Shown here piece by piece: positions 18,690 to 53,929 of a stretch of DNA of 57,398 nt. The DNA comes from Prorocentrum cordatum. Its lineage: Eukaryota. Location of the stretch: positions 62,001-119,398 of the forward strand of contig CAUYUJ010000031.1 in assembly GCA_963575745.1 (NCBI GenBank), in the 5' to 3' direction. The position numbers and the translations under genes were made by a program. Under the pieces are notes generated by a model. It did not search any database. It saw only the letters and a program-made list of their open reading frames with translations, and had not been told where the DNA came from. How positions within the stretch are numbered: position 1 is the first letter of the stretch; each line of letters starts with the position of its first letter.

Positions 18690-18730
<41 letters not shown>

Positions 18731-19215
18731 CACGCACACACACACACGCTCGCACACACGCGCATGCACGCACGCACACGACGCACACGCACGCGCACAC
18801 ACACACGCACACGCACGCACACACACACGCACACACACGCCACACACACGCACACACACACACACGCACACACGCGCACACACACACACACGCACACACA
18901 CACACACACACGCACACACACACACACACAACACTCACGCACACACACGCACACACACACACGCACGCACGCACATTCACGCACACACACGCACACACAC
19001 GCACACACACGCGCACACACGCACACACACACACACGCACACACATGCACACACGCGCAAACACACGCACACACGCACACACACGCACACACACACAAAC
19101 GCACTCACACGCACGCACTCACACGCATACGGACGCACGCACACGCGCACACGCACACACACACGCACACACACGCACACAGGCGGCACGCACACGCACA
19201 CGCACACACACACGC
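17676..19215. repeat. Compound (CACG/CA/CACACG)n microsatellite, left block
   Basis: Directly visible; near-continuous purine-pyrimidine alternation. Confidence 0.97.
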
Positions 19216-19236
19216 CCGTAGCCATTTTGGCTCAAG
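19216..19236 (+). other. Genomic relic of the dinoflagellate spliced leader (21-nt core)
   Basis: Exact CCGTAGCCATTTTGGCTCAAG. The DinoSL consensus is DCCGTAGCCATTTTGGCTCAAG. No GT donor follows, so this is not an SL RNA gene. Confidence 0.95.
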
Positions 19237-25127: not shown

Positions 25128-25974
25128 GGAGGATGAGGAGGAGGGGAAAGGAGGATGAAGAGGAGGAGGAGGAGGAGGAGGAGGAGGAGGAGGAGGAGGA
25201 GGAGGAATAGGAGGAGGAGGAGTGGGAGGAGGAGCAGGAGGAGGAGGAGGAGGAGGAGAGGAGGAGGAGGAGGAGGAGGAGGAGGAGGAGCAGAGGATGA
25301 ATGGGAGGAGGAGGAGGAGGAGGAGGAGGAGGAGGAGGAGGAGGGAGGAGGAGGAGGAGGAGGAGGAGGAGGAGGAGGAGAGGATAGGAGGAGGAGAGGG
25401 GAGGAGGAGCAGGGAGGAGGAGAGGAGGAGGAGGAGGAGGAGGAGGAGAGGAGGAGGAGGAGAGGAGAATGGGGGGAGGAGGAGGAGGAGGAGGACGGGA
25501 GGAGGAGGAGGAGGAGGAGGAGGAGGAGGAGGTAGGAGGAGGAGGAGGAGGAGGAGGAGGAGGCGGAGGAGTCGGAGGAATAGGAGGAGGAGGAGGGGGG
25601 AGGAGGAGCAGGAGGGGAGGAGAGGAGGAGGAGGAGGAGGAGGAGGAGGAGGAGGCAGAGGATGAATGGGAGGAGGAGGAGGAGGAGGAGGAGGAGGAGG
25701 AGGAGGAGGAGGAGGAGGAGGAGGAGGAGGAGGAGGAGGAGAGGAGGAGGAGGAGGGGAGGAGGAGGAGGAGGAGAGGAGGAGGAGGAGGAAATAGGAGG
25801 AGGAGGAGGGGGAGGAGGAGCAGGAGGAGGAGGAGGAGGAGGAGGAGGAGGAGGAGGAGGAGGAGGAGGAGGCAGAGGATGAATGGGGAGGAGGAGGAGG
25901 AGGAGGAGGGAGGAGGGAGGAGGAGGAGGAGGAGGAGGAGGAGGAGGAGGAGGAGGAGGAGGAGGCGGAGGCGG
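25128..25974. repeat. ~850-bp degenerate (GGA)n array abutting the 3' end of the minus-strand LINE
   Basis: Directly visible; the interruption GCAGAGGATGAATGGG recurs near 25290, 25655 and 25872. Confidence 0.95.
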
Positions 25975-26090
25975 TACGGCCAGACCGAACGAGTGCGCAG
26001 AGCGACAGAGAGGGGAGAAAGAGAAAGACAAAGGCCGAGGGCGCGCAACCCGACGATTAGACGGAGGACAGCCCGAGGCGCAGCCTCAGG

Positions 26091-29000
26091 CTACCGCAGA
26101 CGAAGCCAAAAGCAGGCATCGTCTGTGGGGAAGAGGGGGCGGGGCTCGCCCCGCCACTCGCCCGAAAGGGGATCTTTACCCGCCTCAAGGCGCTTTAAAT
26201 ATGTGGCGTCCTTGCTGGATGCAAAACCCTCACACTGGCCCCACAAACGGGAACGAGGGGCCGACGGCTGGGCCCTGGCGCCGCAGCGGTGGCAGAATGC
26301 AAGGGTCTCGCCAGCAAGACTAATATGATGCCCTCTAGCACTACAGGGCCCCACAGGGCCATGAGCGGGGAGAGGGACCTCAGGGCGGGCGGCATCACGC
26401 GCAACCCAGGAAGGCGCACCAGGACCTCCAGAGGTCCGAGGGCGCTTGCAGGGCGGGGGCCCCACAAGCACGCCAGAGCCCGCAGGCCCGACAACGCCAG
26501 ACACGGAGGGCGACGCCCCCGTCCGAGGCGCCTTCGGACGCGGGCCCTCCAGGGGCCCACCCGCCCTGCGGTCCCTCACCGTCCTGGCAGGAGCGGGGGG
26601 GGGTGGCGGAGGGGGGGGCTCATGCGGGGCCAGGGAGCGTGCCTCTTTGGCGCGCCGACACGCCTCCCCCAGCTCAGCATCCAACTGATCCTCACCCCCA
26701 CCATCCACCTGAAACCTCACCCGCTTAAAGGCCAGGGACCGCTCAAGACCCTCGGTCGCGATGGGCGGCGACCTCTCTGGTCCACTTGAGGCTTCGACGC
26801 TTCGAAGCTCCAAGGAAGGGCGAGCCTCAGAGGGGGGGCCCGAGACGCTCCCGCTCGGCCCGCCAGGGCCCTTCGGCCCAGCAAGGGCCGCAGTCGAGGA
26901 AGGCTCAGGCGAAACACCCTCGAGGCCCCAGAGGGCCGCCGCCTCCGCGACCCTACAAAGACCCTTCCTAAGCCTCGCAGCACCTTTCGGCGTAACCGCG
27001 TAAGCGGAGCAACGATCACAACTGTACTTCTTACCCCTCAACCTCACTCGATGCAGGAGCTGAGGAGGGCAGGCCTGCCCGCCTGCGGGTGAACCCGCAC
27101 CGCGGCGCCCGCGCCCAGCGCCGCTGCCTGCAGCGCCAGCCGCGGTCAGCTGCGCCCAGCGGCCGCGCAGCTCCATGTCGCGCCTCAGTGGGACGTCCAC
27201 GCGGTCGGGTGCCACGGTGCATTCGAAAATCATCCTGGACGAGTTTGCAATCCAGGTCGCGACCGATCTGAGCGTGCAGAGCGAGTCGGTGTAGCTCTTG
27301 ACAATGGCCTGGGGAAGGTCGTGCAGCTGCCGACCCCTCTTAGCCGCTTGATCTGCCAGATCGTTGCAGCGGCGATGCCATGAGTCCTCCCTGGAGTGGC
27401 CCTTGACGTACGAAAACCGAATCGGACTCTCCAGGTCTCCAGACATGGAAAAAACCACCATGGTCCTCCAACTGGTGAAATAGGCGACGCCAAAGATCCA
27501 CATTCTCACGCCTCGGATTTAGACACCAGCGCTTGCCACGCGCCAGCCCCTCAAGCAAAGGCATGTCGTCCGTGAAGATATGGGGCGGGGCCACACCGAC
27601 GGACAGCACCTGAATCACTGCGAACAACTCACCACGAGCGGACGTCTGGCGATGGCCAGGCAGCGGCCCAAATACCGCTCCGTGGTAACAAGCATCCCCA
27701 ACAACCACGAAGCCCCAGCCCGCACGGTCAGCAGCGTCCCAGTGGAGCAACTTCCTGCACGACCCGTCAGTGAACACCGAGCCCGTGACGACAAAATGTC
27801 CATGGGCCCGAGTTCCACGATCATAACACCAAACACCTGAGTCGTTCCTGGGCGGCAAGGCAGGAAGAAAGGAGTTGGGGTAAAGCCCACGCGAGTAGAG
27901 CAAATCACCAGGTGGTGCCCTCCTTGCCGCGTCCAGGGTGGCCTCCGACACCGCATGCTCCCGAATGCCGTCAAACACGCGGCATTGCCAATACCTGTGG
28001 TGGGCGGTACCTTCGACACCAGGACAGTTCCTGCATTCAGGGCAGTGAGCGTAAGCGTGTCGGTGCAAGCGCTTCTGCGTGAAATGGCCACCCACGACCG
28101 CAGTGCGTAACGCAGCCCGAGCCAGCGGATCCAATGCCCAACGCTTGGCCTTGGGACCAGGGCAAAGCAACGCACGTATGGGACTCAACCATGCACCAGC
28201 GGGGTCCTTGTGAGACGGGCCATCAAGTTCAGGCATCACCTCAGGCCTGGCAGCCCATTGGTACCAGCCTACGATCTCATAGTCCTTGAGCGCCAGCCAC
28301 TTGACCCCTGACGGGGCCACCTCGCGTAAGTCCATAGTAATACCAGCACGAGTACGGACTCGAAACGCTGAGGAGACTGTCCAGCCCAAGAAAATCACAG
28401 GCCGCGCAAAAGCACCAGCTGGGCCAGCCACTAGCTTCCAGCTCTCCTGCCAGTCAACCGAGGCCACCTTCCAGTATTGAGAGCGCCATGCCGTCTGCAG
28501 CGTAAAATGGTCAACATCCCCCGACTGAATCAACAAAGCCCAGTTGAAAACAGGTCCAACAATGGCCAAAGTCGCTGGTTGAGACTCAAAGCCCCCTTCC
28601 AACCTCGATGCAATCCAGTGCGACGCCCCTGAGGGAATGGCTTGCCAGCCCAGCTTCGCCAGGGAAGTCGCGCGCTTGATCAGGTGCGGCCCGGCGCCCA
28701 GAATGCCCAAGCCGTAGGTAATAGCGGGGCCAGCTGCTGCTTTGGGAACCTGTCTGAACTTCGCTCCAAGGTGGCTCAGCCTCTTGAAGTGCCTTGCCCG
28801 CTTCAATACGCGCCCGACGCGACCCCGAAGCACTCGGGCACGAGCGCTCTTGCCAGCGGCCGCCTCGAGGCCCAAGACCTGCAACCAGGGCCTGGCCTGA
28901 AAACCGTATCTCCGCAGAAGACGAGCCGCAGCGGGGGCTGCGGAGTCATCAGACGCGGCGAGGAAAGCCTTTGACTTCGCCACGGGGGGGCCGAGATCCT

Positions 29001-31600
29001 GCAGGGTGTCACAGAGCAAAGCCACCGCATCGGTGGCGATCCTGCACGCATCCGTCCGTCTGGCCACCACTTGCAGAGTTAAATCGTCAGCGAAGATGTC
29101 CAACGAGAAAGAAAAACCCATCTGAGCAGGAATGCCGAGACCGACCGTGCTGACGAAATCATCCATTGACGCGAGCATCAGTAGCTGCGCAAAAGCCATG
29201 GCAAACTTGCACCCTGGAAGGACGCCCTGAGACACCGTAACGGCATATGACGAAGCCTGCTGCTACACGAGTCTGCGAGGCGCACGATACATGCTCAGCG
29301 CACAAGAAAGCAGCTGACGCGGAAATGCGTGCTTGGCCGCCGCCGAGATAAGCCTCCGCCAACAAATGCGGTCGAAGCACTTCTCGACATCAACAATGGC
29401 CGTCACGACACCTTGCTCCACCGCCAGTGCAGCTTCAGCCCTCACCAGGGCCCGCGAGGCCACGTCCAGAGTGGTCTTGCCAGAGGCCAGGGCGAAAAAC
29501 GGCCTGTCGTGCTCCAGCAGCCAGACCCGCAGCTGCCTGCTGCGGACCTGCGACCACACACGGTAAGTCGCCTGCAAGAGCGCGATGGGCCGCCATCCAC
29601 CTTTGGGCTTCGCCAAGAGCACAATGTGGACGGCGGCCAGCTGCGTGGGCCAACGCTCCCAGTGCTCCGCCAGCCAGAGCACATAGATGAGCAGTGAGAG
29701 GGTCTCGTCCGCGAGCAGGCTGAGGGAGCGAGGCGCCAGCCGGTCAGCACCTTGCCCAGTGTGCCACTTGAAGGACTTTGCCGCCGCGCGCAGTTGGCCA
29801 ATCTTGGGCACAGGCAGAGAAGCGCGCGGCAGGCGTCGAATATCATCAAAGAGCTGCGCCGTGTCAGGGAAATCCGCGAGGTGCCTCACCGCATATTCAT
29901 CGGGTCCAGCAGCAGCCCCATGCACCTGATCACGGGTGGGGATCACTGACGCAGAGCGTGCATTCCAAATGCGAGACCAACCATCCATTTGATCATCCGC
30001 AACATCCTGAGCCAAGGTAGATGGCTTCGCATGCCGAACCCCTTGGGAATGCCGAACACCAGACGGCTTCGTGAAGCTGAACAGCGGCTTGATGCGAGAC
30101 TCACGACAGTTGGCGGCCCACCGTGCGAACTCTCGCCTGCGCTCGGCCATCGCCGCCTGCTCCAGGTCGTCAGCGAAAGAGCGAAGCCAACCAATGACAA
30201 AATAGACCGACTCCATCAGCAGGCGCTGAATGCCAGGGAGATCACCTCCCATGAGACCAGTAGTGGGCAACCCAACGTGGTCTCCTGACTGCAACAGGGC
30301 CGCTCGACCCAGCAGCACCTGGAAAGCGTCGGGGGACGCCTCCACGACCTCCCGTGCCAGCGGCAAGATGCCCCGCAGCGTGGCCACCACGTGCTGGCAC
30401 TCAAGCGAGCGAAAAGACCTTTCGGCGCCCAGAGAGACGAGTCTGTCCAAGCGCCGAAGTAAATCCAAGGGCTGCAGCCTTGCACGTAGCGCATCGTCAG
30501 CAGCTTGGGCCAGGCGCCGAGCACGCCGAGCGTCAGGAGGGGCGGCAGGTCTCGCAGCTGCTGGCGCTCCTCCAGCTTGGCGCCACCTGTGGGCCACCTT
30601 ATCAGCACGACCGCAGTAGCGAGGAGCGTCGCTCGCAGGGACACCATAACGCACCAGCAACTCCTCCTCCACGATGTTCATAAACTCAGCGTACAGGTGG
30701 TCCAGCCGCGCCTGAGCCTGAACAGGAGTCGCATCACCTCCAAGTACCGCATCCTCCTCGATGAGTTCGCGGGTGCGATCCGCCAGCACAGGCGTGACGT
30801 CCTCGGTCGGGGCCGCCTTCGGAAAAGCCTTCGGCGCCCGCAGGACGAGGAACTTGACCGCCTTGGCCCGCGCGTCGAGGGACGTCACCATCGGGAAATG
30901 CGGCGATGCAGGCCGTCCGTCCACAGGCACAGGCTGCGCCAGCGAGCTCGCAATGGACAAGCTGGCCAGCCAGTAGTCAATGGTCGAGTAGGCACCCTGG
31001 GCGCTGCGGCACGTGCCCACAGGGAGCTGCCTTGCAGGAGCAGGGGGCCTCGCGACCACTGCAGCAGGGATGAAGTCTAAGAAACCACACTCCCCAATAT
31101 GCTTCGGATCACAGTTGAAATCGCCCGCCATCAGAAACGGCCTGTTCCAACCCCGCAGCGTTGTAGCGATGTCATAGAGCCTCATCGCATTCACGTCGCT
31201 CCATCGCCCAACTTCAAAGTAGCATGACAACAGCACAAGACCACCTCTGATACCAAAATCCGCATGACACGCCACACAGAAACTCGGAATCAGGTCAAAG
31301 CCTTTCAACCCAGGCAGCTCCGTCACGCTGATGTGACGCCGAACGAAGAGACCCACTCCAGCAGAAGGCCGCCCCGACTCCAGACGTCGGCACGATGAAA
31401 TAATAGCATGCCACCCCGGTCGAGCCGCCCAGCCTTCAGCACGCCGACGGTCGTCACCATCGATGCGCAGCTCCTGAGCCGCCACAACCTGGATGCCAGG
31501 ATCGCAGTGGGCCAAAAACTCCCTGCACGAAGTCCAGGAAGAACCGTTGCATGTGACGAAGGAGGCCTGTACACGGGCGCGGCCTCGACGCCCACGGCAT
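26091..31600 (-). pseudogene. LINE-A ORF2: AP endonuclease, reverse transcriptase, CCHC-like finger, RNase H and C-terminal extension; one in-frame TAG (29263-29265) and a frameshift near 27450
   Basis: APE: FVTCNG, VAAQELR, SAGVG, MAGDFN, TIDYWL, SPHFP. RT: LLAKPKGGWRPIALL, VDVEKCFD, QGVLPGC, IFADD. CRNC..HHRYWQC. RNase H: VFTDGS, QTSARGEL, IFTD, VKGH, NDLADQAAK. ORFs 29263..32646 and 27340..29235 are in the same frame. Confidence 0.9.
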
Positions 31601-32566
31601 CTAGCCTTCCATGTCGGCCTCGCCTGCGTCTTCCCAGGCGGCAGCGGCGGTTCCCCCGCCTGCGCGAAACGCGTATGCAGCTCCTGGCGGCAGCGCGGCC
31701 GCGGGGGGAGCTGCGGCTGCAGGCGAGGAGCCTGCTGGGGGTCCTGCTCCAACGGCGGCGGGGGCAGCTGCGGCTCCTGGGGGCGTGAGGGCCGAGGCGG
31801 CAGGGAACGCTGTGCCAAGCGCTGCAACCTGCTGCCCGATCGCCTCCAGGACATGGATGCCCTGGCCGCTGGCGACGCGCGCGGGGGCAGTGGCGAGCGT
31901 GGACTGAAGGCCGACCAGCGTGGAGGCGAGGGCTGCCAAGTCCACGCCGCTGGAGCTCGCCGCCGAGGCCGCCGCGGCCTGCTGAGCAGCCTGGACCTCG
32001 ACCTCCAGGTTCTTGACCTCCGAGTCGGCCACGCCCTGCTGCCTGCGGAGGTCGTCGACCTTCGCAAGGGCCACCGCGAGGTCGTCCGCCAGCTGGGAGG
32101 CCCGAGCACGTGCCTTTCCCACGCGCTGCTGGAGGGAGACCAGGAGCTGCTCGGGAGGCTGAGCACGGCGCTCCTCCGCCTCCAGGGCGGCGAGCTCCTG
32201 TCGAGCTGCCTGGACGAGCGGGTGCTCCTCGGCGTAGCCGAGCTTCTGAAGAGCGGCCAACCCTTGCCTGGCGCGCACGACTGCGGGCCCAGCAGGTTCT
32301 CCATGAGCAGCGCCATCTGGAGGACCACCACGAGCACGAGGGGGGGGGCCAGAGCGGCGGCGGCGGCCCGCGGAGGTCGACCTCGCGCCCTGCTCCGAGG
32401 AGGCGGGCGACTCACGGACCGTGCGCCCAAGGCGGTCTCTGCCGCACTTCCAGCACGTGTCACGGCTGGGGAAGTTGTTGCGGAACCCGCAGAGCCTCGA
32501 TGCCGCACATGGCCAGTTCTGCTGCTGGGGCGGGGCGGCACCTTGCTTGGGCAACTGCTGGGCCAT
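31601..32566 (-). CDS. LINE-A ORF1 (321 aa): N-terminal RanBP2-type zinc finger, coiled coil and Ala/Pro-rich tail
   Basis: ATG at 32566. WPCAASRLCGFRNNFPSRDTCWKC approximates W-x-C-x(2-5)-C-x3-N-x(6-7)-C-x2-C. Heptad-like segment LVSLQQRV...VEVQAAQQ. Lies directly upstream of ORF2. Confidence 0.8.
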   Translation of the reverse strand: MAQQLPKQGAAPPQQQNWPCAASRLCGFRNNFPSRDTCWKCGRDRLGRTVRESPASSEQGARSTSAGRRRRSGPPPRARGGPPDGAAHGEPAGPAVVRARQGLAALQKLGYAEEHPLVQAARQELAALEAEERRAQPPEQLLVSLQQRVGKARARASQLADDLAVALAKVDDLRRQQGVADSEVKNLEVEVQAAQQAAAASAASSSGVDLAALASTLVGLQSTLATAPARVASGQGIHVLEAIGQQVAALGTAFPAASALTPPGAAAAPAAVGAGPPAGSSPAAAAPPAAALPPGAAYAFRAGGGTAAAAWEDAGEADMEG

Positions 32567-33483
32567 GCCAAGGCTGCTCCCTCGGTCGCCGTGATGCCCA
32601 GCCAGCCTGGTGCGGGCCGCGGCCAGCCGCAGCGCGAACCTCGCACGAGATCTCAGGCGGCGAGCCCGCCGATGCCACGCAGGGCTGCGCGAGCGGTCTC
32701 TCGACGCCACGATTGCAGGCGCCCGCAAGCAGCGGGCAGCCGGCGCGGGGGCAATGGCGCGGGCCCCGCGGCGCCCGCCCGCAGGCAAAACGGCTGCGGG
32801 GGGGCGTGGGGGGGGGGGCCACGGTGCCAAGCCACCTAGGAGGAGGAGGAGGAGGAGGAGGAGGAGGAGGAGGAGGAGGAGGAGGAGGAGGAGGGAGGAG
32901 GAGGAGGAGGAGGAGGAGGAGGAGAGGAGGAGGAGGAGGAGGAGGAGGAGGAGGAGGAGGAGGAGGAGGAGGAGGAGGAGGAGGGAGGGGGAGGAGGAGA
33001 GGGCGGAGAGGGGGAGGAGGACCCTGTGAGGAGGATCCTGGGCCAGGTCCCCTGCCTGTCCATATAGCCCTCCCTCTCCGCCTCCTCCTCCTCCTCCTTC
33101 TCCTCCTCCTCCTTCTCCTCCTCCTCCTCCTCCCTCCTCCTCCTCCTCCTCCTTGCGCGCAGGAACCTGACAAATTCATTGTCTTGCACAGCTGTGTTAT
33201 AGAGCTCGGGCCTCTTCATTTTCGTCACCGTCGGCCTCTTCTTATTTCGTTGCGTCCCTGGCCCTCCTGGGCCGCGCACATGCCGCCGGCCATGATTTGC
33301 GCCCCCCCCTCTTGGACGCCCCCCTCTTGGCCGACCCTGAAAGACAGAAGCATAAAAATGAGTTTTTGGAGTTCCGCGCGGATTGCTCGATCAGGCGATG
33401 GTCCTCCCTGTGGCGGCGCCCCCGGCGCCGCCTCCCTGGCGTGCTTTCCGCGCGCCTGGGAGGAGGGTCTGGCTCCGATCCCA

Positions 33484-33745: not shown

Positions 33746-33839
33746 GACCGTGTCTGATGCAGTTTTTGTTGTTGGCACTCGCGCCCCCCGACAACGTGAA
33801 CAACCCAGAAAACAAAACCAAGATATACCCGCGGTGTGC

Positions 33840-33861
33840 TCCGTAGCCATTTTGGCTCAAG
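33840..33861 (+). other. Genomic relic of the dinoflagellate spliced leader (full 22 nt)
   Basis: Exact TCCGTAGCCATTTTGGCTCAAG; the first T is shared with the end of the target-site duplication. Confidence 0.97.
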
Positions 33862-34632
33862 TCAAGTCTGCCCGACAAGTTCCAGCAGGGACCGCGCTGA
33901 TTTCATCACAGCATCAAGCTGTTTTCCGACACTGAGATGAGAAAGTTATTTGTTTACGGTGTTCCCGTTCTCGGACCGTTGCTCGGGACAGACAAGGTGC
34001 CGAGTTTCGAAGATGTCGACAAGCTCATGATGGCGCTGGCATTGGTACAAGGGCTTTTGCTATCCTGTCTCGCTGGGACTTTTCAGTCAGTATTGGAATG
34101 CTCCGACGATGCCGAATAGCCTGACAAAGTTTTGGCAATCAATTTTCAGTATTGGTCTTTTGAATGCTTGTGTTTGGCCATCCTTTTCACAATTATCACA
34201 TACGCCTACATTGTGTATTTGATCGACCAAGCAGGTGGTGACACTGTAGAAATGAAACGGATGGAAGTGTTCTGGACAGCCGGGGGGAGATTTGTTATGG
34301 CAGGGCTTGTAGTGTTCACGGTCACTAGGGCTGTACTTTATGCGTGGGGGGTCGAGCGGGCACTTGCGTGCATGTATGGTGACCTACACGGTGGCCATTG
34401 GGGCATGGATGGCTTCCTCCCAGGCGGCCTTGCGATGCCGTTGGTTGCATGCTTTTGTGCGATCTTGATTCACGTATCCTTTAGGAAGATGTTGATGGAA
34501 AATCTGGATGGTCTGCTTGGAGGGGCCCGCGCAGGAATATCACGTGTCGGCGACGAATCTGTTGCAGGTGTTCATTCCAGGTAAAGTTCTGGGTTCAATT
34601 CGCGTCGAGGTTCATGTCAGGAAACAAAAAGA
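33840..34632 (+). pseudogene. Processed pseudogene (SL-headed retrocopy) of a ~215-aa probable 4-TM membrane protein; CDS 33937-34584 with an in-frame TAG at 34117-34119
   Basis: SL, 75-nt 5' UTR, intronless frame (ORFs 33937.. and 34132.. are in phase), short 3' UTR, A-rich tail at 34622-34632. Flanked by the direct repeat AAGATATACCCGCGGTGTGCT at 33820-33840 and 34633-34653. Four hydrophobic segments. Confidence 0.92.
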
Positions 34633-35619
34633 AAGATATACCCGCGGTGTGCTAGTCGGACGCACCCTCATCTAGGATTGACGCCCTTCCATCTTACGTC
34701 TCCGAGCTGGGCCCACAGTTTTATGTCCAGTCGAGGGCCCCTATAAAGTCGGGGATTCGGCTGGCGGTGCTAAACTTACACAGATGATACAGGCGGTTTC
34801 GACTTCATCCCAGTTGACTCGGAGAGCGCATTGTTGATTCTGTTGATTACGTAGTGCCGCCTACCAACCTCCCCGAAATGGCGGCTGGAGTGGCGCATGA
34901 TTGTCGCTGTCGCCCGAGCTCGCGTGCCCTAGGTCACCCGCGGGGGGGCGCGAAGATAACCGCTTGTCGCGGCCTAGGCTGGGGAGTTGCCCTTCTACTG
35001 GAAGGTGGCGCGATGGCGCGAAGATTGCCGCCCTTTGCGCGTCGCGGGCGCGGGACCCGCGAAGGTGAGTGACCTTCCAGTAGGCACATCCATTAAGAAG
35101 TCGGCCTTCCATCATCGACAACAAAAGAACCCTTGACCGTGATAACACGATGAGGACGTGGTCTCACTGAGGTTCCCGTCTTCGCACTAGGGGTCATAGA
35201 TCTGGGTGGTCTGGTCTCTGGTCTGATGCATCTTCAGAAGCGACTCTCTATCCCTTCTGTTTTGGCTTTCCTAGCTCAGGTCCAGACCCAAAGGGTTAGG
35301 GGTACGGTAGGTTCGCGTCGTGTCGACCGGCGGCGACTCCAGCGCGTTCGTTTAAGGTTGAACGCCGCCCGTGGCCCAGAATCGGCCCGCCGTTGAACGA
35401 TCTGGCGTTAATGGGACGGCCGATCGTTCAAGTTTGAACGATCCACGCGGTGTCAGGAACAAACGCCGGGGTCGACACGACGCGAACTTGTCGTACTTTG
35501 ATGTTTATCATTCCACCAGGTGCACCACAGAAATCTTGAACTTGTCTCATCCCCCGAGTGCCGCCAGGGACCCCCATAGAAGGTCTGGGGCACCTCAGGG
35601 CCCTCGGCGATTTACGAGC

Positions 35620-39264: not shown

Positions 39265-40490
39265 TGGATCTAAGACGACAGGCTCTTTCTCGCGGCCCCT
39301 CGTCGGATCGGCTCTCTGCGCCCGTCCCAGGTTCCGACGTCGTGATTCTGCTCACAGCGTCGACCCCCAGAGGTCTGGCAGCCCCCTCCCTCCCCGGGAC
39401 CGGCGCTTCCTCCCGGGAAGGAGGAGGAGGGCGAGGAGGAGGAGGAGGAGGAGGAGGAGGAGGAGGAGGAGGAGGAGGAGGGCGAGGAGGAGGAGGAGGA
39501 GGAGGAGACCCCACCCCGAGTCTTTTCTCGTTGGCAGCCCCCTTCGGCCCGGGGAGGGCCCCCGGAGGCCGAAGACAGCGAGAGACCTCCCGCCGATCGC
39601 GCCGTGCCCTCCGCGCGCGGGCGTCCGGGGCCCGGCGCCGCAGGAGGGCGACCGCCTGCGGGCTCAGCTCGCGGAGGCCGCCGCCCCGCCCCGCCCCGCG
39701 CCGCGCCGCCGCCCGGGCGCCCACGGAGCGCACCGCCCGGGGCCACGGGCGCCGCGCGAGGGCCGCACGGCCGAGCCGCGGCGCACCGGCGGCGGCGCCG
39801 GGGCGCGTGCCGTCTGTCTCCGGCGGGGGCCGGCGAGGAGCCTCCCGGGTGCTCCCTGCGAAGCTCGGGCCGGGCGGAAAGGGGTCAGCCGCGCGCAGAG
39901 CCCAGACCCCCTCGAGTAATGAGAAAATCATGACGGGAGGTTTTTCCTAATTTTCGGCCTCCGGGGGCCCTCACCGGGCCTCGGGAGCGTCAAAAAACGA
40001 CTCGGGATGCAAAGCCGGTCATGGGGAAAGGGTCGGGACCTCTGGAGGTCGACGTAATGAACAAATCATTACATCGTGGGGGTCTGGGAGGGGGGTGGGG
40101 GGAGGGGGGAGGGCTTCGGAGAAGCACCCCTGCTTCTTAGAAGGCGCGGCCCTTATCTGTAGGTGTAAGGCCGGCGCCTTCTAAGAAGCAGCCTCCTTCT
40201 AAGAAGCCCTCCGCCCTCCCCCCACCCCCTTGTGCGCGCCGCCAAATGGGGGGGATCGGGGAAGGGGGGTCTGCTGCATGCAGCTGGTTTCCTCACACGA
40301 GCTGCATGCAGCTGGTTTCGGCCTCACCGAGGGGCCCCTTCCTCGACGCATAGCCGCCTGCGGCGCCGGGAGGCGCCGGGAAAGTCAGCTACGTGAGCTG
40401 GTCCTCACCCCCCCCCCTTTGCTATCCTCCCCTTTCGCCCGACCCGAGAAGAAACATTCGAAGAAGAGAAAACGCCATGAACATATCTTT

Positions 40491-40620: not shown

Positions 40621-42485
40621 ACAGTTTATGTATTCCAGATTTTGTAATAAAGGGAGGGGGGTCTCATTTCGGGGGGGGGTCTCTTCCAGGCTATCTTGGA
40701 GGGCCTGGGGGGTCTGGGGACTATGTTTTGGAGGGTTCTCCCACGGGGGAGGTCTGAAATGGCTTGTCTTGGAGGGTCCAGACCCCCTCCCTTTTATTAC
40801 GAAATCTGGAGTATATGCAATGTTCTCTTGCTCTAATCCTGGATCGTCCTGCGGAGGAAAAAAAGAAAACATGCACGAGATCGGAAAACTGCACGGGGGA
40901 GGGACGTCCGAGCGATGGCGAGACGAGGATAAGCCCGTTCCAGAGCGTTCCGCAACGCTCGGAGCGCTCCGGACATCTTTGAGAAGGCCGCGGCGCCCGA
41001 GACGTCCTCTGGAGACGCCGGATCTAAGGGATTCTCGATTTCGCCTCGCCCGATTTGATCCTCGTCTTGACTTCGTCCTGCACTGCGCGGTCGAGCCCGG
41101 CGCGCAGCACGGTGGAGCGCAGGGCCGTTGCCAGACATGCTCGCGCCGTGACAACAGAAAATCGGGACGGGAGGTTTTCGGACGTTTTCGTCGGTTCTCG
41201 ACGGCTTTCCAGCCTCGGGATGCTCTGCAGCAGTTGCGCCTCGCCGAGGGCGTTCCGGGGGTGCCCGGATCGCCCCGAACGACCGCCGGAGAGCCGAGTT
41301 ATGGGTTCTAAAAACAGGCATGCTCGCGTCGTGAGACAATCAGGATGTGATGGGGGTTCACAGTGTTCGGCCTCTCGGGGTCCTCGCCAGGCCCCAGGAT
41401 AGTAAAGCATTTTTTGAAGGCGAAATACCGGCCTTAGGGAAAAGGTGGGCCGCGTCCCCTGAAGTCCCGATCTTCTCCCTGGGGCAACTATTTTTGGGGT
41501 TTCTGTGGTTTGCACGGCATGCTTCTAAAGCTTTTTTGATCGAGGCCGTCTTGTTGGAACCCACCGTGTTCTGAGGACAATGCGCTTGTTGTTAGAGCAT
41601 CTCGCTTGTCCTAAGAACATGTCGTGGTAGGCCCATAGGAATGCCCAGACGGTCGGTCCCTGCTGAACACACGGGGTTCAAGTAGAGGGTGTTGAAGGAT
41701 CTCGTCGCATCGACGATGCGGCTCGATGTGTAGCAGCGTTGGTGCTGTCAGTGGCGTTTGCCGCGCCGTGGGTGTCGCTTAGGCCTCACCTGGTTTCACT
41801 CTGGGCTCCACCCTGATTGGTGTACCCGTAGGGATTGGCGCTTGCTGCAGCTCCTGAATCCAGGGTCCTTAGTCGCGGCCCCCCCCCGTGGCAACTGCTG
41901 GGGAGATGGTGCCGGTGTTGCATGTCAGGGTGGAATGTAGCTTGGCATAGCTGATCTCGAATGTCTGCGCAATTTCATCAGCTCGCTCCTGAGCCAAGGC
42001 TGGTTATAGCGGTATTGTTGGTAATTGGGCTCGAGCTAAACGGTGTTGTGATGATTTCGTGGACCGCGCTCGTTTTGATTTCGTTTCGCAGCAAAGGCAG
42101 AACGAAGACAGAACGAAGGACCATTATGACAACACGAGGACGAATAACACTGTTTATCTCGAGCCCTGGTTGGTAAACGGTCTCTAGGTCGTCAGGGGTG
42201 CTTTTAGACACGCTTGTCGTAGGCTGCGGCAGCCAAGTGTGCGCCCCCCCTGCTGGGCAGAGCAGTTGCGCAGGCCCGCCGTCGCCCGAGAAGGCTCCAT
42301 GGACAGGGGGATTTGCGGCCTGGTGGCTTGGGCTGCAGGGGTACACGATGGTGGCCAAATTTTCCACCACCACTACCATAAATGGGACGGAGAAGAAGGG
42401 AGGAGGGGAAGGTCCTCCTCCTCCTCTTCCTCCTGCTCCTCCTCCTCCCCCTCCTCCTTCTCCTCCTCCTCCTCCTCCTCCTCCT

Positions 42486-42507
42486 TCCGTAGCCATTTTG
42501 GCTCAAG
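42486..42507 (+). other. Genomic relic of the dinoflagellate spliced leader (full 22 nt) at the 5' end of a LINE
   Basis: Exact TCCGTAGCCATTTTGGCTCAAG immediately after (CCT)n at 42413-42485. Confidence 0.97.
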
Positions 42508-42626
42508 GGTGGTCTGCGCTACCCGCTCGGCCTGGCTCCCCCCGACCCGCTCCTCGGGTCTTCCTGCTCCCTCTCCCTCGGGCCGGGCGCGCCCGGGTGC
42601 TCCTCGTGCCTCTCCCCGCTCTCGCC

Positions 42627-43669
42627 ATGGCTGAGGTCGCCGGTGTGGCAGCAGCTGTGAACGGCCTGCCTGCCCTGCCTGGGCTGCCTCCTGCTCCTGC
42701 CCCCTTGGGGGCCGTGGGGGAGGGCGCGCCTCCGCCCAGTGACTTGACGATGATAGTGAAAGAGGGCTTTTCCTCTCACAAAGCAGAGGTTGAGTTGTTT
42801 CGACAGCAGATGACAGTGATGGGCACCAACTTCGATCGAATGCAGGAGGAGTTCGCGGAGATGAATCGTCGCTCGGAGGCTCGCTGGGCAGAGATTAAGA
42901 AATCACAGGATGCAGCGATCCACCAGGTCTCGGTTGACACAGATGCGAAGTTGGCGGCAGTTGTGGCAAAGATCGACGTTCAGTTGCAAGAGCTCCAGCA
43001 GAAACTCTCAGCAGGTTCGTCGACTCGTGCCGATTCGGAGTTCGAGCTCGTAGGAGGTGATGGGGAAGGAGGGCGGCGTACGAGGTTGAGGACGTTGGGC
43101 CCTGACCAAGCCAGTGCTACTCGTCTCATCGTTCTAGGTTTCGAGAAGCCCCTGCTGGAAGCGTCCCTCAAGGAAGCGGTCGCCCCGATAGTCGCTGCGT
43201 GTAGTCCAGCTAGCTGGTGAGGGACCGATCGTTCGAGCATGCTCCCTCACGCGGAAGGTGATCCTTGACTTCCCCAGTACTCTGTCGTGCACGGCGTTCT
43301 TCGGTAAGAGCCAGACCATCGGTAAGATTGTGTACTAGAACCCGATTGATAACCAGGGCTGGGAGCTTCGCGTGCGTCGTGACTTGCCCCCCCGCTAGCC
43401 GTCAGTTGTTCTACTACCAGGGACAGATTCGTGCGATCATCGGGAAGGTCTTGGGGGAGAAAGGGTTCCAGGTGGGCAGCAACGGACTCGGTGGTCAGAT
43501 ATACGGTCTCATCACGGCTACCCACCCAGTGATTCTGGCGAAGGTCACGGTCCTTGAGTGCGGTCGCCCCGAACTCGTTCTGATCCCTGAGGCCCTCGGA
43601 ACGTTCGGAGTTAGTGAGCACGCAGTATGCATTGTCACCCTTTTTGATCAGATTCGGCCCTTTGTGTGA
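42627..43669 (+). pseudogene. LINE-B ORF1 (coiled coil plus possible RRM-like half), with about two frameshifts near 43215 and 43340
   Basis: GCCATGG start at 42627; coiled coil NFDRMQEEFAEMNRRSE...VQLQELQQKL; RLIVLGF motif. Protein-like continuation GEGPIVRACSLTRKVILDF, then the 43265..43669 frame. Confidence 0.7.
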
Positions 43670-46600
43670 GGGCCCCAGTTGTCCTGGAGTCCCCCGCCTC
43701 GGGATTGCTAGTGCCCTGCCTGGCCTTTCTTGTCGGGTCCCTGGTGGTTCGGGCCCTCCCTGGGATGGTGGGCCTGTCGGGGGAAACCATCGGACCCGTG
43801 TGACGAATTGCCAGGATAGTGCTCAGCCAGCCAACCAGTGTTTTAATCTGAATTCAGGAGGACCTTATACCCCTGGTGACCCGTCCTCAGGAGCGAACGG
43901 GGTGTTTGCTTCCTCTTCTGCGCTTACCTTGTGCTCTTGGAATGCACGTGCTCTCTTCTCATCGTGCTCTACTTCGTCTCCGCTGGCAGCTCGGCGTTGC
44001 ACGCAGATGTATGGTCTTGTTGGCAGGTTTGACGCGGTGTGTTTACAGGAGACTCATGGCACGGTATCTGATGTGGAGATGTTACAGCGTGATGAACGTT
44101 GTCGTAGTGCAAGCGTTCACCATTCGATGATCGATCCGAGGGCTGGGGGCGGGGTGGTTACTGTCATATCGAGTAAGCTGGCTTCGCAGTTCGAATCGAT
44201 CACGCCGTTTCCGTTGATTGCTGGCCGTGTTCTCGCCTCGCACCTGAAGGGACGTTGTGGGGACCTAGTGATTGTTAATGTGCACATGCCGAATACTTCT
44301 GATCCAGTTGCGATGTATCGCAGGTACCTGTGTGTGATTCAGGCTTTCCTTCCATTGGCTGCACACACCATGTGCTTGATTGCTGGGGATTGGAACTTTA
44401 TGGAGGTGGAGGAGGGGCGGTTTCGGACTGACGGCACGTGGTTAGCAGGGGACAGGGAACATACGGATGCTTTTCAGTCTATTTGTGGGTCCTGGGCTGA
44501 GCTGTACCAACCAGATCCGACACGGCGTGATGTGTTCCAGGGAGAGGTCCGTGGGGTTGCCCGTCTGGACCGCATCTACACCTCTCTCTCGGCCCCTGTC
44601 TTGAATGATTTGGCGGTGACGGTAAATACCCTGGGGCATGCCGTGAAGACCTTCGCCTCGTCTGACCACATCCCAGTTGTGGCCACTGTCGCTCTGAGGA
44701 TGCCATCTGCATTACCCACCCATATTCCTAAGTGGATTTCCCAACATGGAGCTTACCATGAGTTGTGTACCAGCGCCATTATGGAAATCGGCCAGGATCT
44801 GACCCCTCGGGAGAAACTGGCTCGGGTGAAGGAGATTTTCTGGCAGATGGTCCCGCTGTTCAAGGCTCGGCTTCGGTCGAAGCCCCCGAAAGAGAATTGT
44901 GAAAAGCTCAATTTTGCTATGATGGCCTTTGTATTTTTTTTTTTTTTTTCTTTTTGATGTTTTTGCTCTTTTTATTTTTTTTTTTTCATTTTTTTTTTTT
45001 TTTTTTTTTTTTTGTTTTTTTTTTCTTTTTTTTTTTTTTTTTATTCTTTTTTTTTTCCTTTTTTTTTTATTTTTTCTCATTGTTTTATTTTTTTGTCTTG
45101 TTTTGGTATTTTTTTTTTTGTACTTTTTTTTTTGTTTTTTTTTTATTTATTATTGTTTTGTTCTTTTTTTTTTCTTTTTATTTTTTTTCTTTTTTTTTTT
45201 TCTTTTTTGTTTTCTATTTTTTCTTTATTTTTTCTTTTTTTTTTGTTTTTTTTATTTTTTCTCTTTTTTTTAATTTATTTTTTATTATTATGTTTTTTTT
45301 TCCTTCTATGATGGCTTTCCGTGGGTGGCGTATAGGCAGGTTCGACCGGTGTGTGCGTGCGATCCGTGCGTATCCTCGGTTGCTTCAGTACTTTGATCCA
45401 GACCGTGAGAGATGCTGGGATATAGTTGGCCTGGGTGCTTGAGTGCAGTCTCTGAAGGATGCTTGGTATGAGTCGGAGGAACGGGCGATGGACGGGTGGG
45501 AGGATGACGAGAAGTCTAAGGCTAAGGCCATGGCCCGCTTGCAACACCTTCGTCGTGCTTGGTCAAAGATGCGACGGCGTTGCGGGCTCTCTGGGGTCCT
45601 GGACAGTTCTGGGCAGGTTTGCCCTTCTCCGGCGGCCTTTGCTGAGGCCCTTCGGGACCATTGGCAGGTTGTCTTTGCCGCCAAGGAACCTGATCGGACC
45701 TTTGGCCTGAAATCCTCGCTCATGCCCGGCCGATCCAGTTGGACCCACTACATTGGAAGTTGGAAGTCGATGGTTTTATTGAGCGAGCCCGATTTAAGCA
45801 TCACTCTGCCCCCGGGGAGGATGGCATTCCATATGGATGCTGGAACGCTGAGGGGGCCGCTGATGTTTTATTCGGCGTTTATGATGAGATGTACCAAGCG
45901 TCGGGGGGTACTGTTTCGGCGTGCATGCGTCGAGGAAGGATGTGTTTCCTGTCCAAAGACCTCAAAGACGACGAGAACCCCGCAGTCCTTTTTCGGTCGC
46001 CTGATAAGACTCGCCCTCTCACGCTTGCGAATACCGATGCGAAGCTCCTGAGTGACGCCTTCTCCATTGGCCTCCAGAGGGCTGCACCGACAGTGATTGA
46101 TCCGATCCAGCGGGGGGGGGGGGGTCCCGCGTCGTGGGCTCCTTGACAACGTGGTTGAGATTGAATGGTGGGGTGTTCGTCAGAGGCTTACTGGTGGGGA
46201 CCGCTCGGGCATTCTTTTCACGGACTTTAAGGCTGCGTTCCCCTCTCTGATCGTCTCCTGGATCTTGGCGGTCTTGGAGGCCATGGGTGTTCCTGGTGAA
46301 GTTTGTGGTTTCTATCGCGAGTTGTACCGTGACAATGTGGCTGTAATCCACTTCGCGGGGACAGCTGGTGTTACTTTTTCGGTGGAGCGTGGGGTGCGGC
46401 AAGGTGATCCTGCTTCGATGCTCCTCTTCGCTTATGCGTTAGACCCAGTATTGCGTTGGATGAGGGCCAAGCTCACTGACCATGTCCCTCGGATTAGAGC
46501 ATGCGCCGATGACCTCTCTTTCTGCCTCCCCGACATCCTGACTGACCTCCAGCCGACGCTCTCGCTCCTCCGTAAGTTGGAACATTCTGTGGGACTGGGG

Positions 46601-47915
46601 CTGAACATTCCCAAATGTAAGGTCCTGGTGATTGGCTCGCTTGATCCTGAGAGATTAGTTGCCCACCTTCGTTCCAAGGGGAGTGAGTACTACCGCACTG
46701 TGTTTGTTCGCGTGGTTCTTTACTTGGGGTTCTGGCTGGGGCCTGGGGCTCTGGACAAAGTATGGAGCAACGCCATCCCCAAGTTCTGGATGACGGTTCG
46801 AAGGCTTCGTGGGCTTGGGCTTGGGCTTCCACAGACCATTCGCCTTTTCCACTCACACTGCATGTCGATTCTGGCGTACCAGTTACAACTCTGTCCAGTG
46901 ACCAAGGCGCTCCGTAAAGCGTATAATGAGGCCTTACAGGTGATTACTGCTGGTCCCCGCCATGCCTTCTCGAGGGAGATGCTGACGGGCTTGCGTGCGT
47001 TGGGAACCTCTCTAGAATGCTTGGATATCGATTGCTTTTCCAAAGCCATCAAGTTTCGGGTGGTTATGTCGTGCTCCAGCATCGATGCTATCCAGTATGA
47101 GATGGAGTCGTTGACGGTTTCCCTGGACGACGATGATTTCATTCCCGCTCGACTGTCATGGCCCTGGTGGAAGTCTTCCTGGATCAGGACTGCGGTGACT
47201 GAAGTAGGCAACTTCACGGTCCCGTCTCTGGAACCTATTCCCAAGAAGTCCTTTCAGAAGAAAGCCATGCGCAAGCTCCGAGGGCTCCGTGACCCCACTG
47301 TTCCCCTCCGCACCATGGTTCAGAGGGTGTCCAAGTGGGTGGGTCCCGACCGTTTTTCGGTAGCTGACTTTCAGGTGCTTGCCCAGAGGATGCGTAAAGT
47401 TGAGAAGGACAGCACGATGCACCTTGTCACGGGGGTCCTTAGAGTTCTCTGCCGTGGGGTCTGTACCTCCAGCCGGCTGCGTACCACGGTGGAAGGATGT
47501 GCGTTTGGGTGTCCTCTGGAAGCGGCTGACGACGACCGGAGGCATGATCGCGTGTGCCCAAAGTTGAAGGCTGGGTTGATTGACATATTCCCCCGTGGAG
47601 GACTCCTGAGGTCTTGGACCGCGGCTCTAACAGGTGAGGATTGGCTCCTCGCTCTTTGCTGTCTGGGGCCACAGTGGGGGAGGTCACGTGACCTAGCGGG
47701 GCGTGCCCTTATTAGATTTCGTTCTGGCCGCGCATAATGCTCGCAGGACCGGCTCGGTCCAGCCGGGGGAGTTTCTTATTAAAGCTAGGCTTCGGCAGCT
47801 GTCTCGTCGGCACCGCAAGCTTAATGAGGCGCTTCGGGCGCTGCGTCTGGCTGCTGCTGCTGCTGCCCCTCCCCCTGCTCCTCCTGCTCCTCCTGCCGTG
47901 CCCCCCCTCTCCTGA
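43614..47915 (+). pseudogene. LINE-B ORF2: AP endonuclease, reverse transcriptase and CCHC-like knuckle; disrupted by a T-rich insert, TGA 45440-45442 and frameshifts near 45730, 46120 and 47705
   Basis: APE: CSWNARAL, VCLQETH, VNVHMP, IAGDWN, ARLDRIY, SDHIPV. RT: SAPGEDG, RPLTLANTDAK, DFKAAFPS, GVRQGDPAS, CADD (normally YADD), YLG. Knuckle: CAFGC..HDRVC. Confidence 0.92.
44927..45305 (-). mobile_element. ~380-bp degenerate poly(A) insert (poly-T on the + strand) with a 10-bp target-site duplication
   Basis: CTATGATGGC at 44917-44926 and 45306-45315. Removing the insert and one copy restores the reading ...NFAMMAFRGWR... Confidence 0.8.
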
Positions 47916-49237
47916 GTTGCCGTGTCCCCCTTTTTGGTCCGCCCTTTTCCCTGTGGCCCCCTAGGTATTGGTCCATGCATGAAGCTGTTAGAGTGTGATG
48001 TGACCCTGGAGGGTCTCTCTGGTTGGCTGGCTGGTTTTCCGAGGTTTTTTCCTGATGATGTGCTTTCTCTGCGTTCTGTTACGTTTCTTGGTTAATTCAG
48101 GGCCCCGTGTTGTCGCCAGGGTTGTGGGCTCTGCCCAGTGCTCAGTGTGACCCTCTCTGCCGGCAGGTGAAGATGGAGAGGTGCAGCTAGAGAGAGTCCT
48201 CTCTCGCTGCGCCGCCGCCCCCCTGCTTTGGGGGGGTGCCTCTCTTGCCGCGCCGCCGCCCCCCCGCCTCTCTCCGCCGCCCGCCCCGCGGCCGCGCCGC
48301 CTCTCTCGCCTGCCCGCCTCTCTTGCTGTCTATGAGCTACAGGTTCTCGGGCGGGCGGAACGGTCTGGTTCGCTCGAGCGTCGATGGAGCGTCGCTCCTG
48401 TAGGGTAGGCAGGCCTTCCCGCGACGCCGAGCCGCGGCGCCTCCAGACACCCGTTGCGTCTGGCGCGGTGGAGGCCCCCCCCCCCTCTGCCGCGCCCCGC
48501 CGTCGCCCTCAGGTTCCCGACGAAGTTCGAGGCGCCCCCGCGGCCGCTCCGAGCGAGAGAGTGTCCCCTCTCGCCCTCAGGTTCCCGACGAAGTTCGAGG
48601 CACTTTGGAGGTCAGCTGTCTTGTTTCCCTTGTTCGGTGTGTTGGGGTCTCGTTTTTGGGGCGCGCCCCTTTTGTCTGCTCCTGCCTGCTGCTCTGTGGG
48701 TTGGGCCCTCGGTCAGCCGAGGAGTGAGTGTGGCATGGGAAGGATGCTCGAGTGTGTGAACCCCTTTTGGACGGTGTGCCGTGGGGGAGCGCGCGCCCGC
48801 CAGGGATCGAGTACACTCGGAGCAGAGTACCCGCCGCCGCTTCTCTTTGCCCTGCCCCTGCCGCTGCTCCTCCCCCGTCCTTTGCATGTATGATAGCACG
48901 GTGCCCAGTGCTCGTTGACATTCGGTGTGCGCGCTTGCGGTGGAAAAAAAAACTCCTCCTCCTCCTCCTCCTCCTCCTCCTCCTCCTCCTCCCCCTGCTC
49001 TCTCCTCCTCCTCCTCCTCCTCCTCTTCCATTGCGGCGCACGTAAATCGACTGGACGAAAGAGTGGCCGTTCGCCGGTGGTGCGGGCCCAATGGGGTCTC
49101 CCCGATCGTTGAACGCGAAGGAGTAGCAGCGGACTGCGCGGCCAGGTTTGGCCACCCCGCGTCCCCCGTCGAGTCGCGCGCCAAATATCAATCTTGCCTA
49201 GGTCACTCTTGCGCGTGACCGAGTAAGTAGGGATATA

Positions 49238-52990: not shown

Positions 52991-53929
52991 AATATGTGGG
53001 AGGAGGTGACCCCTCCGCTGGGCGCGCAGGCCCAGGCGGAGCGCGACTCCTGGCGCGTGCGCGCCGAGCTGGCCGAGGGCGCCTCGCCGAGACCGTCTGC
53101 GCCGTCGGCGCGCCGTCCCGTGCCCTGACGGGCCAATCTTCCACCACCGCTATCATCGGCAGGACCGGGGAGAAAGGAGGACGGGGAGATCCTCCTCTTC
53201 CTCCTCCTCCTCCTCTGCCCCCTCCTCCTCCTACTCCTCCTCCTCATCCTCATCCTCCTACCCCCTCTCCTACATATGGCAGTGGTGGTGGGAGATCGGT
53301 CCATCATCCGCCCCTCGGGCCGGCGCCGCGGGCGCGGCCACCGCACCCTGCCTTCGAGGGCATCGTCAGGGAGTCACATGTTTCAAACAAGAGTCCAGGG
53401 GGCCCAGGGATATATAGACAAGTTCAGACAAGTCCAAGGGTCCCCCCAATTTGTCCACATGTTCTCGATCTTCGTCTACACCCCCTCTTCCACAATTTTT
53501 ATATTTTCGGGGTTATCGACGATTCTGTGTGTTTCTGTGTTGTCTTGCCCATTCTGAAAAAGCTGCTGAGGATTAGGATGATGAGGAGGAGAAGGAGGAG
53601 GAGGAGGACGAGGAGGAGGACCAGTGTAAACCCAAGAGTCTACCTCCTCATAGGCCCCAACGGTTCATTTCCATTGAGGGAACTGCCTCGTTGGAAGACA
53701 ACTGTTTGAAGATCCTGAAGCGTGCCAAAACATTGTTCTCGGGATTTCAACGCCACGTATCAACCTGACTGCTGCGTCTTGACGTTCCGGAACCGTACCA
53801 GAACGCCATTTGTCGGGTTTCAACACCGCGAATCAACATAATTGTTGCGCCCGCATAATCCTGGATCTTTCCAAAACGCCTTTCTGGTACGCTGATCATG
53901 AGAATCCGTGAAACTGTTGCGAACTGTTG

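Follow-up and report, generated by a model that had tools for sequence, protein, structure and literature searches.

Two unrelated LINEs of the dinoflagellate Prorocentrum cordatum lie between sense-oriented (CCT)n tracts, a possible landing site of non-LTR retrotransposons

Here, we report that two unrelated long interspersed nuclear elements (LINEs) in a stretch of DNA from the dinoflagellate Prorocentrum cordatum each lie between two (CCT)n microsatellites, which on both sides read CCT on the sense strand of the element itself. The stretch, called the window below, comprises 57,398 nucleotides (57.4 kb; assembly GCA_963575745.1, contig CAUYUJ010000031.1, positions 62,001 to 119,398 of the forward strand) and is numbered from its first letter. 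Both elements, LINE-A and LINE-B, encode an apurinic/apyrimidinic-type endonuclease (APE) and a reverse transcriptase (RT). Based on their anatomy and orientation, on a LINE-B array that is older than LINE-B and on an excess over random insertion, we tentatively propose, at a probability of about 0.42, that (CCT)n/(AGG)n is a preferred landing site of retrotransposons of the non-LTR type (LTR, long terminal repeat) in this dinoflagellate, reached by target-primed insertion. With two or three insertions at hand, the proposal amounts to a lead but falls short of a result.

Results

LINE-B, the clean case, begins exactly with a complete relic of the dinoflagellate spliced leader (SL), which matches DCCGTAGCCATTTTGGCTCAAG at 22 of 22 positions, and it ends in a run of nine adenines (A9) that stands in place of target-like repeat units (coordinates of all features in Table 1). 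As SL and A9 delimit the LINE-B RNA, the CCT tracts that flank them on either side lie outside the retrotransposed unit. The intact SL further shows that the LINE RNA itself undergoes trans-splicing and was copied at full length. Three perfect copies of the 21-nt DinoSL core occur in the window, against 0.01 expected; the 22-nt consensus, as given in a passage of one source, is DCCGUAGCCAUUUUGGCUCAAG (PMC5585692).

The upstream array of LINE-B can be compared with a site that carries no LINE. The 59 nt to the left of this array have their homologue in the left arm of another unit, located at 53.1 kb (score 27; 0 of 1000 shuffles), in which the (TCC)n runs on uninterrupted. Left flank and uninterrupted (TCC)n thus recur without the LINE, which makes the LINE-B array older than LINE-B. 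The 53.1-kb unit is a foldback, its left arm matching the reverse complement of its right arm (0 of 1000 shuffles). An inverted repeat across the LINE-B site itself was tried as a candidate and rejected as not significant (521 of 1000 shuffles).

LINE-B is an old, decayed copy with frameshifts and a secondary insertion; the latter, a T-rich block, probably arose by retro-insertion of nothing but a poly(A) tract in minus-strand orientation. Its RT scores in Pfam as RVT_1 (E 3.7e-9; frame 46097-47734), its 3' untranslated region (UTR) spans 1.2 kb, and in its translation the residues WN, QETH, GDWNF, RLDR and SDH are legible, which we take to be the APE motifs. The closest database relatives reach at most 31% identity. 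Against solved structures the RT gave weak matches only (R2, 1.3e-7; L1 ORF2p, 3.7e-4) and the APE none. A profile of the RT found 67 loci in prokaryote genome contigs, all of them distant RTs (19-35% identity) on contigs of metagenome-assembled genomes.

LINE-A, on the minus strand, is arranged in the same way: about 200 bp of (AGG)n lie directly 5' of it and 844 bp of (GGA)n lie 3' of it, which on its sense strand read (CCT)n and (TCC)n. On that strand the 5' junction reads (CCT)n-AG/GTGGCTTGG, the slash marking the boundary, and is preceded by a (GAG)n purine arm and a 40-nt spacer. The 3' end has no poly(A) and merges as ..CCGTACC-GCC-TCC-GCC into (TCC)n. A frame of 1129 codons holds the APE and the start of the RT; past an in-frame stop (29263-29265) follow 640 codons with the rest of the RT, a zinc knuckle and RNase H, and beyond a frameshift near 27.4 kb a shifted tail of 475 codons. 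The Pfam matches are Exo_endo_phos (4.1e-5) and RVT_1 (1.9e-6), both slightly below the Pfam cut-offs, and RNase_H (2.6e-4). The APE and N-terminal RT, the only segment searched against solved structures, gave no match. A putative old SL relic 38 nt inside the 5' end (32779-32799, minus strand; 15 of 21 positions) was rejected, six imperfect matches of at least 14/21 being present in the window and 6.4 expected.

LINE domains were found by Pfam at these two places only. Of 199 stop-to-stop frames that reach 130 aa or more, the scan covered 145; left out were 15 frames inside two CACACG arrays and, by hand, 39 others (other frames and strands over both LINEs and the GGA flanks, a GCTGAG array and one CACACG frame). 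Outside both LINEs none of the scanned frames reaches the Pfam cut-off, and the sole other match is SR-25 (score 22.6, cut-off 40). A tblastn search with 74 protein queries revealed no LINE pieces in the window beyond LINE-A, LINE-B and a third element described below. Compared with each other by BLASTP, the proteins of LINE-A and LINE-B show no detectable similarity (best E 2.2 and 1.5), and the two therefore belong to different lineages. Matches in the protein atlas were limited to generic RT and RNase H clusters.

Is such an arrangement to be expected by chance? The window has about 60% G+C and is very rich in tandem repeats. A caveat already raised in an earlier note on this DNA, that CCT/GGA arrays are very common here, proved well founded: we counted 13 CCT-type arrays of at least 15 bp reading CCT and 21 reading AGG on the plus strand, and these 34 arrays make up 4% of the window, or 5.3% once both LINEs are removed. 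From this, the probability that a random insertion has sense CCT at both flanks is 0.026. The chance of two such insertions is 6.9e-4, and 1.9e-5 if a third with CCT at its 3' side only is included; a test blind to the type of repeat, which accepts any shared microsatellite type and orientation, still gives about 9e-4. Under uniform insertion the sense-(CCT)n association of LINE-A and LINE-B is thus unlikely; of the three events behind the excess, however, two are firm and one is ambiguous. These values also bear on the idea that coincidence and survival suffice, with dense CCT arrays, insertions into repeats that are harmless and persist, and a pattern noticed post hoc. The small sample of two or three events, the abundance of the arrays and the decayed state of LINE-B are what such a history would leave. 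We nevertheless hold it to be very improbable, given the result of the repeat-type-blind test for the two LINEs and given that outside them no gene family reaches the Pfam cut-off in the frames scanned, which leaves selection little to protect.

The third element is a 3' remnant at the left end of the window, a non-LTR retrotransposon with a restriction-like endonuclease (RLE). Homology begins only at about 350-374 (tblastn), so the copy is 5'-truncated within the window; it keeps the nuclease part only and sits outside any SL gene. Its 52 longer relatives, with identities of up to 83%, contain RVT_1 in 18 cases and Exo_endo_phos in none. In the aligned relatives RRPAD, D37, E64 and K67 are invariant, and the C..C..H..C motif just upstream of RRPAD is nearly so; the RT profile of the relatives matches R2 best among solved structures (E 1.2e-17; best L1 ORF2p chain 7.2e-10). 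The element is thus an RLE LINE, and the label "CRE-like", which the earlier note had given it, is apt at the level of the RLE group: the relatives combine an RT with a C-terminal CCHC and RRPAD..D..E..K nuclease and have no APE. A tandem duplication of about 33 bp (TTCTGGCCCC..CAGTTGTAACA) at 300-373 fixes the 5' junction at 373/374. TGYAACAGGGC (369-379 and 1178-1188), tried as a target duplication of this copy, was not significant (275 of 1000 shuffles).

The (CCT)n downstream of the RLE fragment could be a target, a tail or an internal repeat of its UTR. A scan of metagenome contigs with the RLE profile matched 358 stretches, of which 194 were confirmed and the best 80 kept (45-69% identity). 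Among these 80 loci, short CCT-type stretches of at least 15 bp occur downstream of the ORF in six, the two nearest relatives (68-69% identity) having none, and AGG-type ones in two; upstream there are none in 132 kb. In seven pairs of near-identical or related contigs, homology breaks inside both members, and C/T-rich low complexity starts four of these 14 flanks. A C/T-rich 3' region is thus a trait of the RLE family; CCT targeting by this lineage is not shown. With 194 confirmed stretches, the family is abundant in marine metagenomes. In one relative (L001), the sequence right after the RLE ORF resembles, by reading alone, part of a gene for a rhodopsin-type membrane protein.

How are the arrays themselves built? 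Tests for flanking direct repeats at 18 array loci singled out two. At the first, a 26-nt repeat stands immediately on either side of a 63-bp (TCC)n array (23358-23420; 0 of 200 shuffles), which looks like an insertion with a target-site duplication. The rare variant ..CCATTC.. occurs once in this array, four times in the array downstream of LINE-A and nowhere else in the window. The latter array falls into four higher-order units, each 170-215 bp long, and contains GAATGG and GAGCAGG as markers four times each. Together, the direct repeats and the shared variant suggest that CCT tracts were themselves dispersed by target-duplicating insertion, and the most economical candidate for the disperser are retrocopies, tail-only or read-through, made from elements like LINE-A. 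The CCT arrays of the window are not simple, independent microsatellites. At the second locus, an (AGG)n array at 39419-39507 (39376-39565), a 24-nt direct repeat lies at a distance of 19-24 nt to the left and to the right (0 of 200 shuffles); this may be a short repeat-carrying insertion. Inverted purine-then-pyrimidine arms recur beside several CCT arrays (e.g. 33036-33153 and 10138-10305).

An array with such a history could also be a consequence of the element beside it. (CCT)n would then be the element's own 3' tail, or an expandable repeat of its 3' UTR, grown by slippage and unequal crossing-over, and the 5' tracts would be leftovers of older tail-only copies that happened to lie upstream. 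The bracketed array, the growth of the 844-bp array in four units, the passage of LINE-A into (TCC)n without poly(A), and the RLE copy, with CCT on its 3' side only and relatives whose 3' UTRs are C/T-rich, would all fit. Yet the tracts of LINE-B lie outside the SL-to-poly(A) unit on both sides, and the upstream one is part of a repeat unit that is also present with no LINE in it. Moreover, the 5' CCT tracts of both LINEs, which share the orientation, stay unexplained unless insertion beside old tails is preferred, which leads back to a preferred landing site. We therefore judge the arrays to be quite improbable as mere consequences.

Not all retro-insertions in the window lie in CCT repeats. 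A 1.75-kb SL-tagged retrocopy that contains no LINE, with a perfect SL relic at its start (19216) and neither poly(A) nor a Pfam domain, is embedded in (CACACG)n that extends 1.5 kb to one side and 1.9 kb to the other; CCT is thus not the only repeat used. An SL-tagged retrogene (33841 to ~34619) and the T-rich block in LINE-B both lie in unique DNA and have ordinary target duplications, so landing in a microsatellite is not forced on every retroposition event. The duplication of the retrogene starts A-rich, as is characteristic of L1-like insertions. Wherever an insert lies in a repeat, its sense strand coincides with the C-rich strand of that repeat.

This last regularity would also arise if the host DNA and not the element set the site. 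Polypurine/polypyrimidine tracts, which here often come with an inverted arm (AGG then CCT), and alternating CACACG tracts may adopt non-B structures (triplex, hairpin, Z-DNA) and so expose or break a strand at which any LINE particle or any mRNA undergoing retroposition primes; if the purine or G-rich strand supplies the free 3' end, this alone would yield the observed orientation. Such a host-side hot spot would suit an association shared by three unrelated element types and by a non-LINE retrocopy in a different repeat, the inverted purine/pyrimidine arms just 5' of both LINEs together with the significant foldback at 53.1 kb, and the poly(A) of LINE-B, which offers no pairing to the target. 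On the other side, both LINEs encode APE domains, LINE insertion free of an endonuclease is rare in other systems, and the two insertions in unique DNA with ordinary target duplications went elsewhere. We consider a hot spot of this kind, the main rival to a preferred landing site, unlikely, though not far-fetched.

The CCT tracts could be a landing pad and an expression signal at once, a sense-oriented LINE gaining a ready 3' splice site by which read-through transcripts are trans-spliced. That (CCT)n upstream of the SL relic might be a ready-made trans-splice acceptor had been suggested before; the sequence fits as far as the two LINEs are concerned, a 73-nt, almost pure pyrimidine tract preceding the two AGs of the LINE-B relic and the LINE-A junction reading (CCT)n-AG/GTGG with the AG exactly at the element boundary, and fails to extend to the other two SL relics in the window, which have no pyrimidine tract upstream. 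As judged from these letters, the double role is distinctly unlikely. If it were true, a promoter-less LINE would be provided with a cap and would start precisely at a full-length 5' end, its SL would be copied back into DNA, as in LINE-B, and with tracts spread by tail-only or read-through retroposition the landing pads would be self-propagating. The system would then also supply the machinery behind the massive retrogene formation of dinoflagellates.

Table 1. Positions of the elements, arrays and other features in the 57.4-kb window
Feature	Position	Strand	Description
RLE-type non-LTR retrotransposon, 3' remnant	374-883	+	5'-truncated; last ~169 codons, nuclease RRPAD..D..E..K; stop 881-883
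Presumed 3' UTR of RLE fragment	884-1082	+	C-rich; 3' boundary not independently defined
(CCT)n, 19.7 units	1083-1141	+	downstream of RLE fragment
SL-tagged retrocopy, 1.75 kb	19216-20969	+	no LINE; inside (CACACG)n 17677-19215 and 20970-22839
(TCC)n 23358-23420, 63 bp	23327-23446	+	bracketed by 26-nt direct repeat (23327-23352, 23421-23446; 2 mismatches)
(GGA)n	25128-25971		844 bp, 3' of LINE-A; reads (TCC)n on LINE-A sense strand (-)
LINE-A	25972-32837	-	APE, RT, zinc knuckle, RNase H in one long frame
(AGG)n	32838-33035		~200 bp, directly 5' of LINE-A; reads (CCT)n on LINE-A sense strand (-)
(CTC)n arm	33076-33153	+	inverted relative to 32838-33035
SL-tagged retrogene	33841-~34619 (window 33808-34652)		unique DNA; 20-33-bp target duplication ending ..AGATATACCCGCGGTGTGCT
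Left flank of LINE-B site	42353-42412	+	GGCCAA..TTCCACCACC.. plus purine run; homologous to 53130-53188
(TCC)n, 24 units	42413-42485	+	runs straight into LINE-B SL relic
LINE-B	42486-48952	+	SL relic, ORF1, APE, RT, 3' UTR, A9
DinoSL relic, 22 nt, complete	42486/7-42507	+	T + CCGTAGCCATTTTGGCTCAAG; exact 5' end of LINE-B
LINE-B ORF1	ATG 42628 to 43220	+	
LINE-B APE	43584-44954	+	Pfam Exo_endo_phos, E 2e-10
T-rich block, 368 bp	44934-45301	+	interrupts LINE-B; bracketed by CTATGATGGC(C)TTT, repeat of ~14 bp
LINE-B RT region	45362-47734	+	spread over at least 2 frames, decayed copy
LINE-B poly(A), A9	48944-48952	+	element end reads ..GGTGG-A9
(CTC)n	48953-49027	+	directly 3' of LINE-B A9
LINE-free paralogue of LINE-B site	53125-53305	+	left arm, purine run, (TCC)n 53190-53245 uninterrupted, right arm

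Discussion

Based on the sense-oriented (CCT)n on both sides of LINE-A and LINE-B, we speculate that the endonuclease of the element nicks the purine-rich (AGG)n strand and that the LINE RNA is reverse-transcribed from the 3' end released by the nick, i.e. target-primed reverse transcription. Nicking of this strand and priming on it would fix the orientation of the insert, so that either flank of the new copy has CCT on the sense strand of that copy. The RNA of LINE-A, with its CCT-like end (..GCC-TCC-GCC-TCC..), would anneal to the nicked (AGG)n strand, and its choice of target would probably be helped by this pairing. The RNA of LINE-B bore a spliced leader together with a short poly(A), and its preference would have to stem from the endonuclease or else from how the target DNA is shaped. 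CCT tracts spread by retroposition, as tail-only or read-through copies, would create landing sites for later elements. We would expect other copies of the LINE-A and LINE-B families to behave alike.

Several observations weigh against a preferred landing site of this kind. Since the poly(A) of LINE-B is unable to pair with (AGG)n, two mechanisms are required for two elements. The right flank of LINE-B shows no significant match to the 53.1-kb unit (413 of 1000 shuffles), so that the empty site is only half a match, and no target-site duplication is readable inside microsatellites; for LINE-B it is illegible as the flanks are repeat units. The SL-tagged retrocopy in (CACACG)n, which is not a LINE, suggests a property of the repeat on the host side over a specificity encoded by the element. 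Each LINE family has one copy in the window, self-BLAST having revealed no second copy of LINE-A or LINE-B, and neither the exact-word scan of metagenomes with the 22-mer of the LINE-A 3' end (0 matches) nor the search of viral contigs, for which the RT/RNase H of LINE-A and the RT of LINE-B were the queries (no match), added another. For the RLE lineage, the 5' junction 373/374 adjoins ordinary non-CCT sequence, a long CCT array at the element end was found in one of the 80 relatives (L066), and pure (CCT)n starts at none of the 14 flanks at which homology breaks.

These points also delimit the earlier note's claim that all five informative LINE junctions abut sense-oriented (CCT)n. The five junctions named there, both ends of LINE-A, both ends of LINE-B and the 3' end of the RLE fragment, are real and do so; the 5' junction of the RLE fragment is a sixth and does not, and five junctions amount to at most three insertion events. 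The further claim that three unrelated lineages converge on the same oriented target holds for LINE-A and LINE-B, which are unrelated and whose association with sense (CCT)n exceeds chance; it does not carry over to the RLE fragment, given its one-sided repeat and its relatives. Both the convergence of three lineages and a (CCT)n specificity at the level of families are unproven.

Is a preference of LINEs for microsatellites known elsewhere? Among animal APE-type LINEs, the Tx1 elements Kibi, in (TC)n, and Koshi, in (TTC)n, and the R1 elements Waldo, in (ACAY)n, and Mino, in (AC)n, were reportedly described by Kojima and Fujiwara in 2004. Like these, LINE-A and LINE-B each combine APE and RT with the same repeat at both flanks and a fixed orientation, and LINE-A resembles many of them in lacking poly(A) and in carrying target-like repeat units at its 3' end. 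They differ in the repeat, (CCT)n, and in the host, a dinoflagellate, and are likened here by anatomy and not by clade; LINE-B further differs in having a poly(A) and a spliced leader. The Tx1/R1 microsatellite families are defined by many copies, whereas LINE-A and LINE-B are known from one each. More broadly, one paper reports microsatellite target-specific LINEs, established in other eukaryotes, for several clades, and lists as RLE-bearing site-specific LINEs R2, R4/Dong, NeSL/Togen, CRE/SLACS and some HERO families, some of which target microsatellites (PMC4640811). The family of the RLE fragment shares with the latter group an RT followed by CCHC and a PD..D/E..K nuclease, without APE; unlike them, the copy in the window has its repeat on the 3' side only, and 79 of the 80 relatives do not end in long (CCT)n.

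Unrelated LINE lineages can occupy one target. R1 and R2 insert into 28S rDNA, and TRAS and SART into the telomeric repeats of insects. The case presented here is similar in that unrelated lineages, including APE and RLE types, lie on the same multicopy target; however, the known cases have the proof of hundreds of copies and of biochemical work behind them, and the convergence here comes down to two single copies. L1 and Alu insert into older poly(A) tails, and likewise the tails of elements in the window may create the sequence that later insertions prefer, which is (CCT)n here and not A-rich.

The spliced leader links LINE-B to a second known system, the DinoSL-tagged retrogenes of dinoflagellates, which Slamovits and Keeling are said to have described in 2008. 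LINE-B resembles these in starting exactly with an entire SL relic and in having poly(A) at the 3' end; it differs in being an autonomous LINE that encodes APE and RT and in being inserted into a microsatellite. Passages of two papers take up such DinoSL-tagged retrogenes, and in these passages the retroposition machinery of dinoflagellates is treated as unknown and its target sites are left undescribed (PMC5585692, PMC12014239). In the full-text literature that we searched, with most subscription journals outside it, no report of a LINE target preference in dinoflagellates was found.

Dinoflagellate genomes have been shaped by retroposition on a very large scale. Homing of LINE families to (CCT)n, if real, would account for part of the repeat landscape of these genomes; a safe-haven strategy would be seen in a protist lineage with none described so far, and annotators would have a simple rule for locating the ends of elements. 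If confirmed, LINE-A and LINE-B would be target-specific LINEs, a known kind of element, with an unusual spliced-leader twist.

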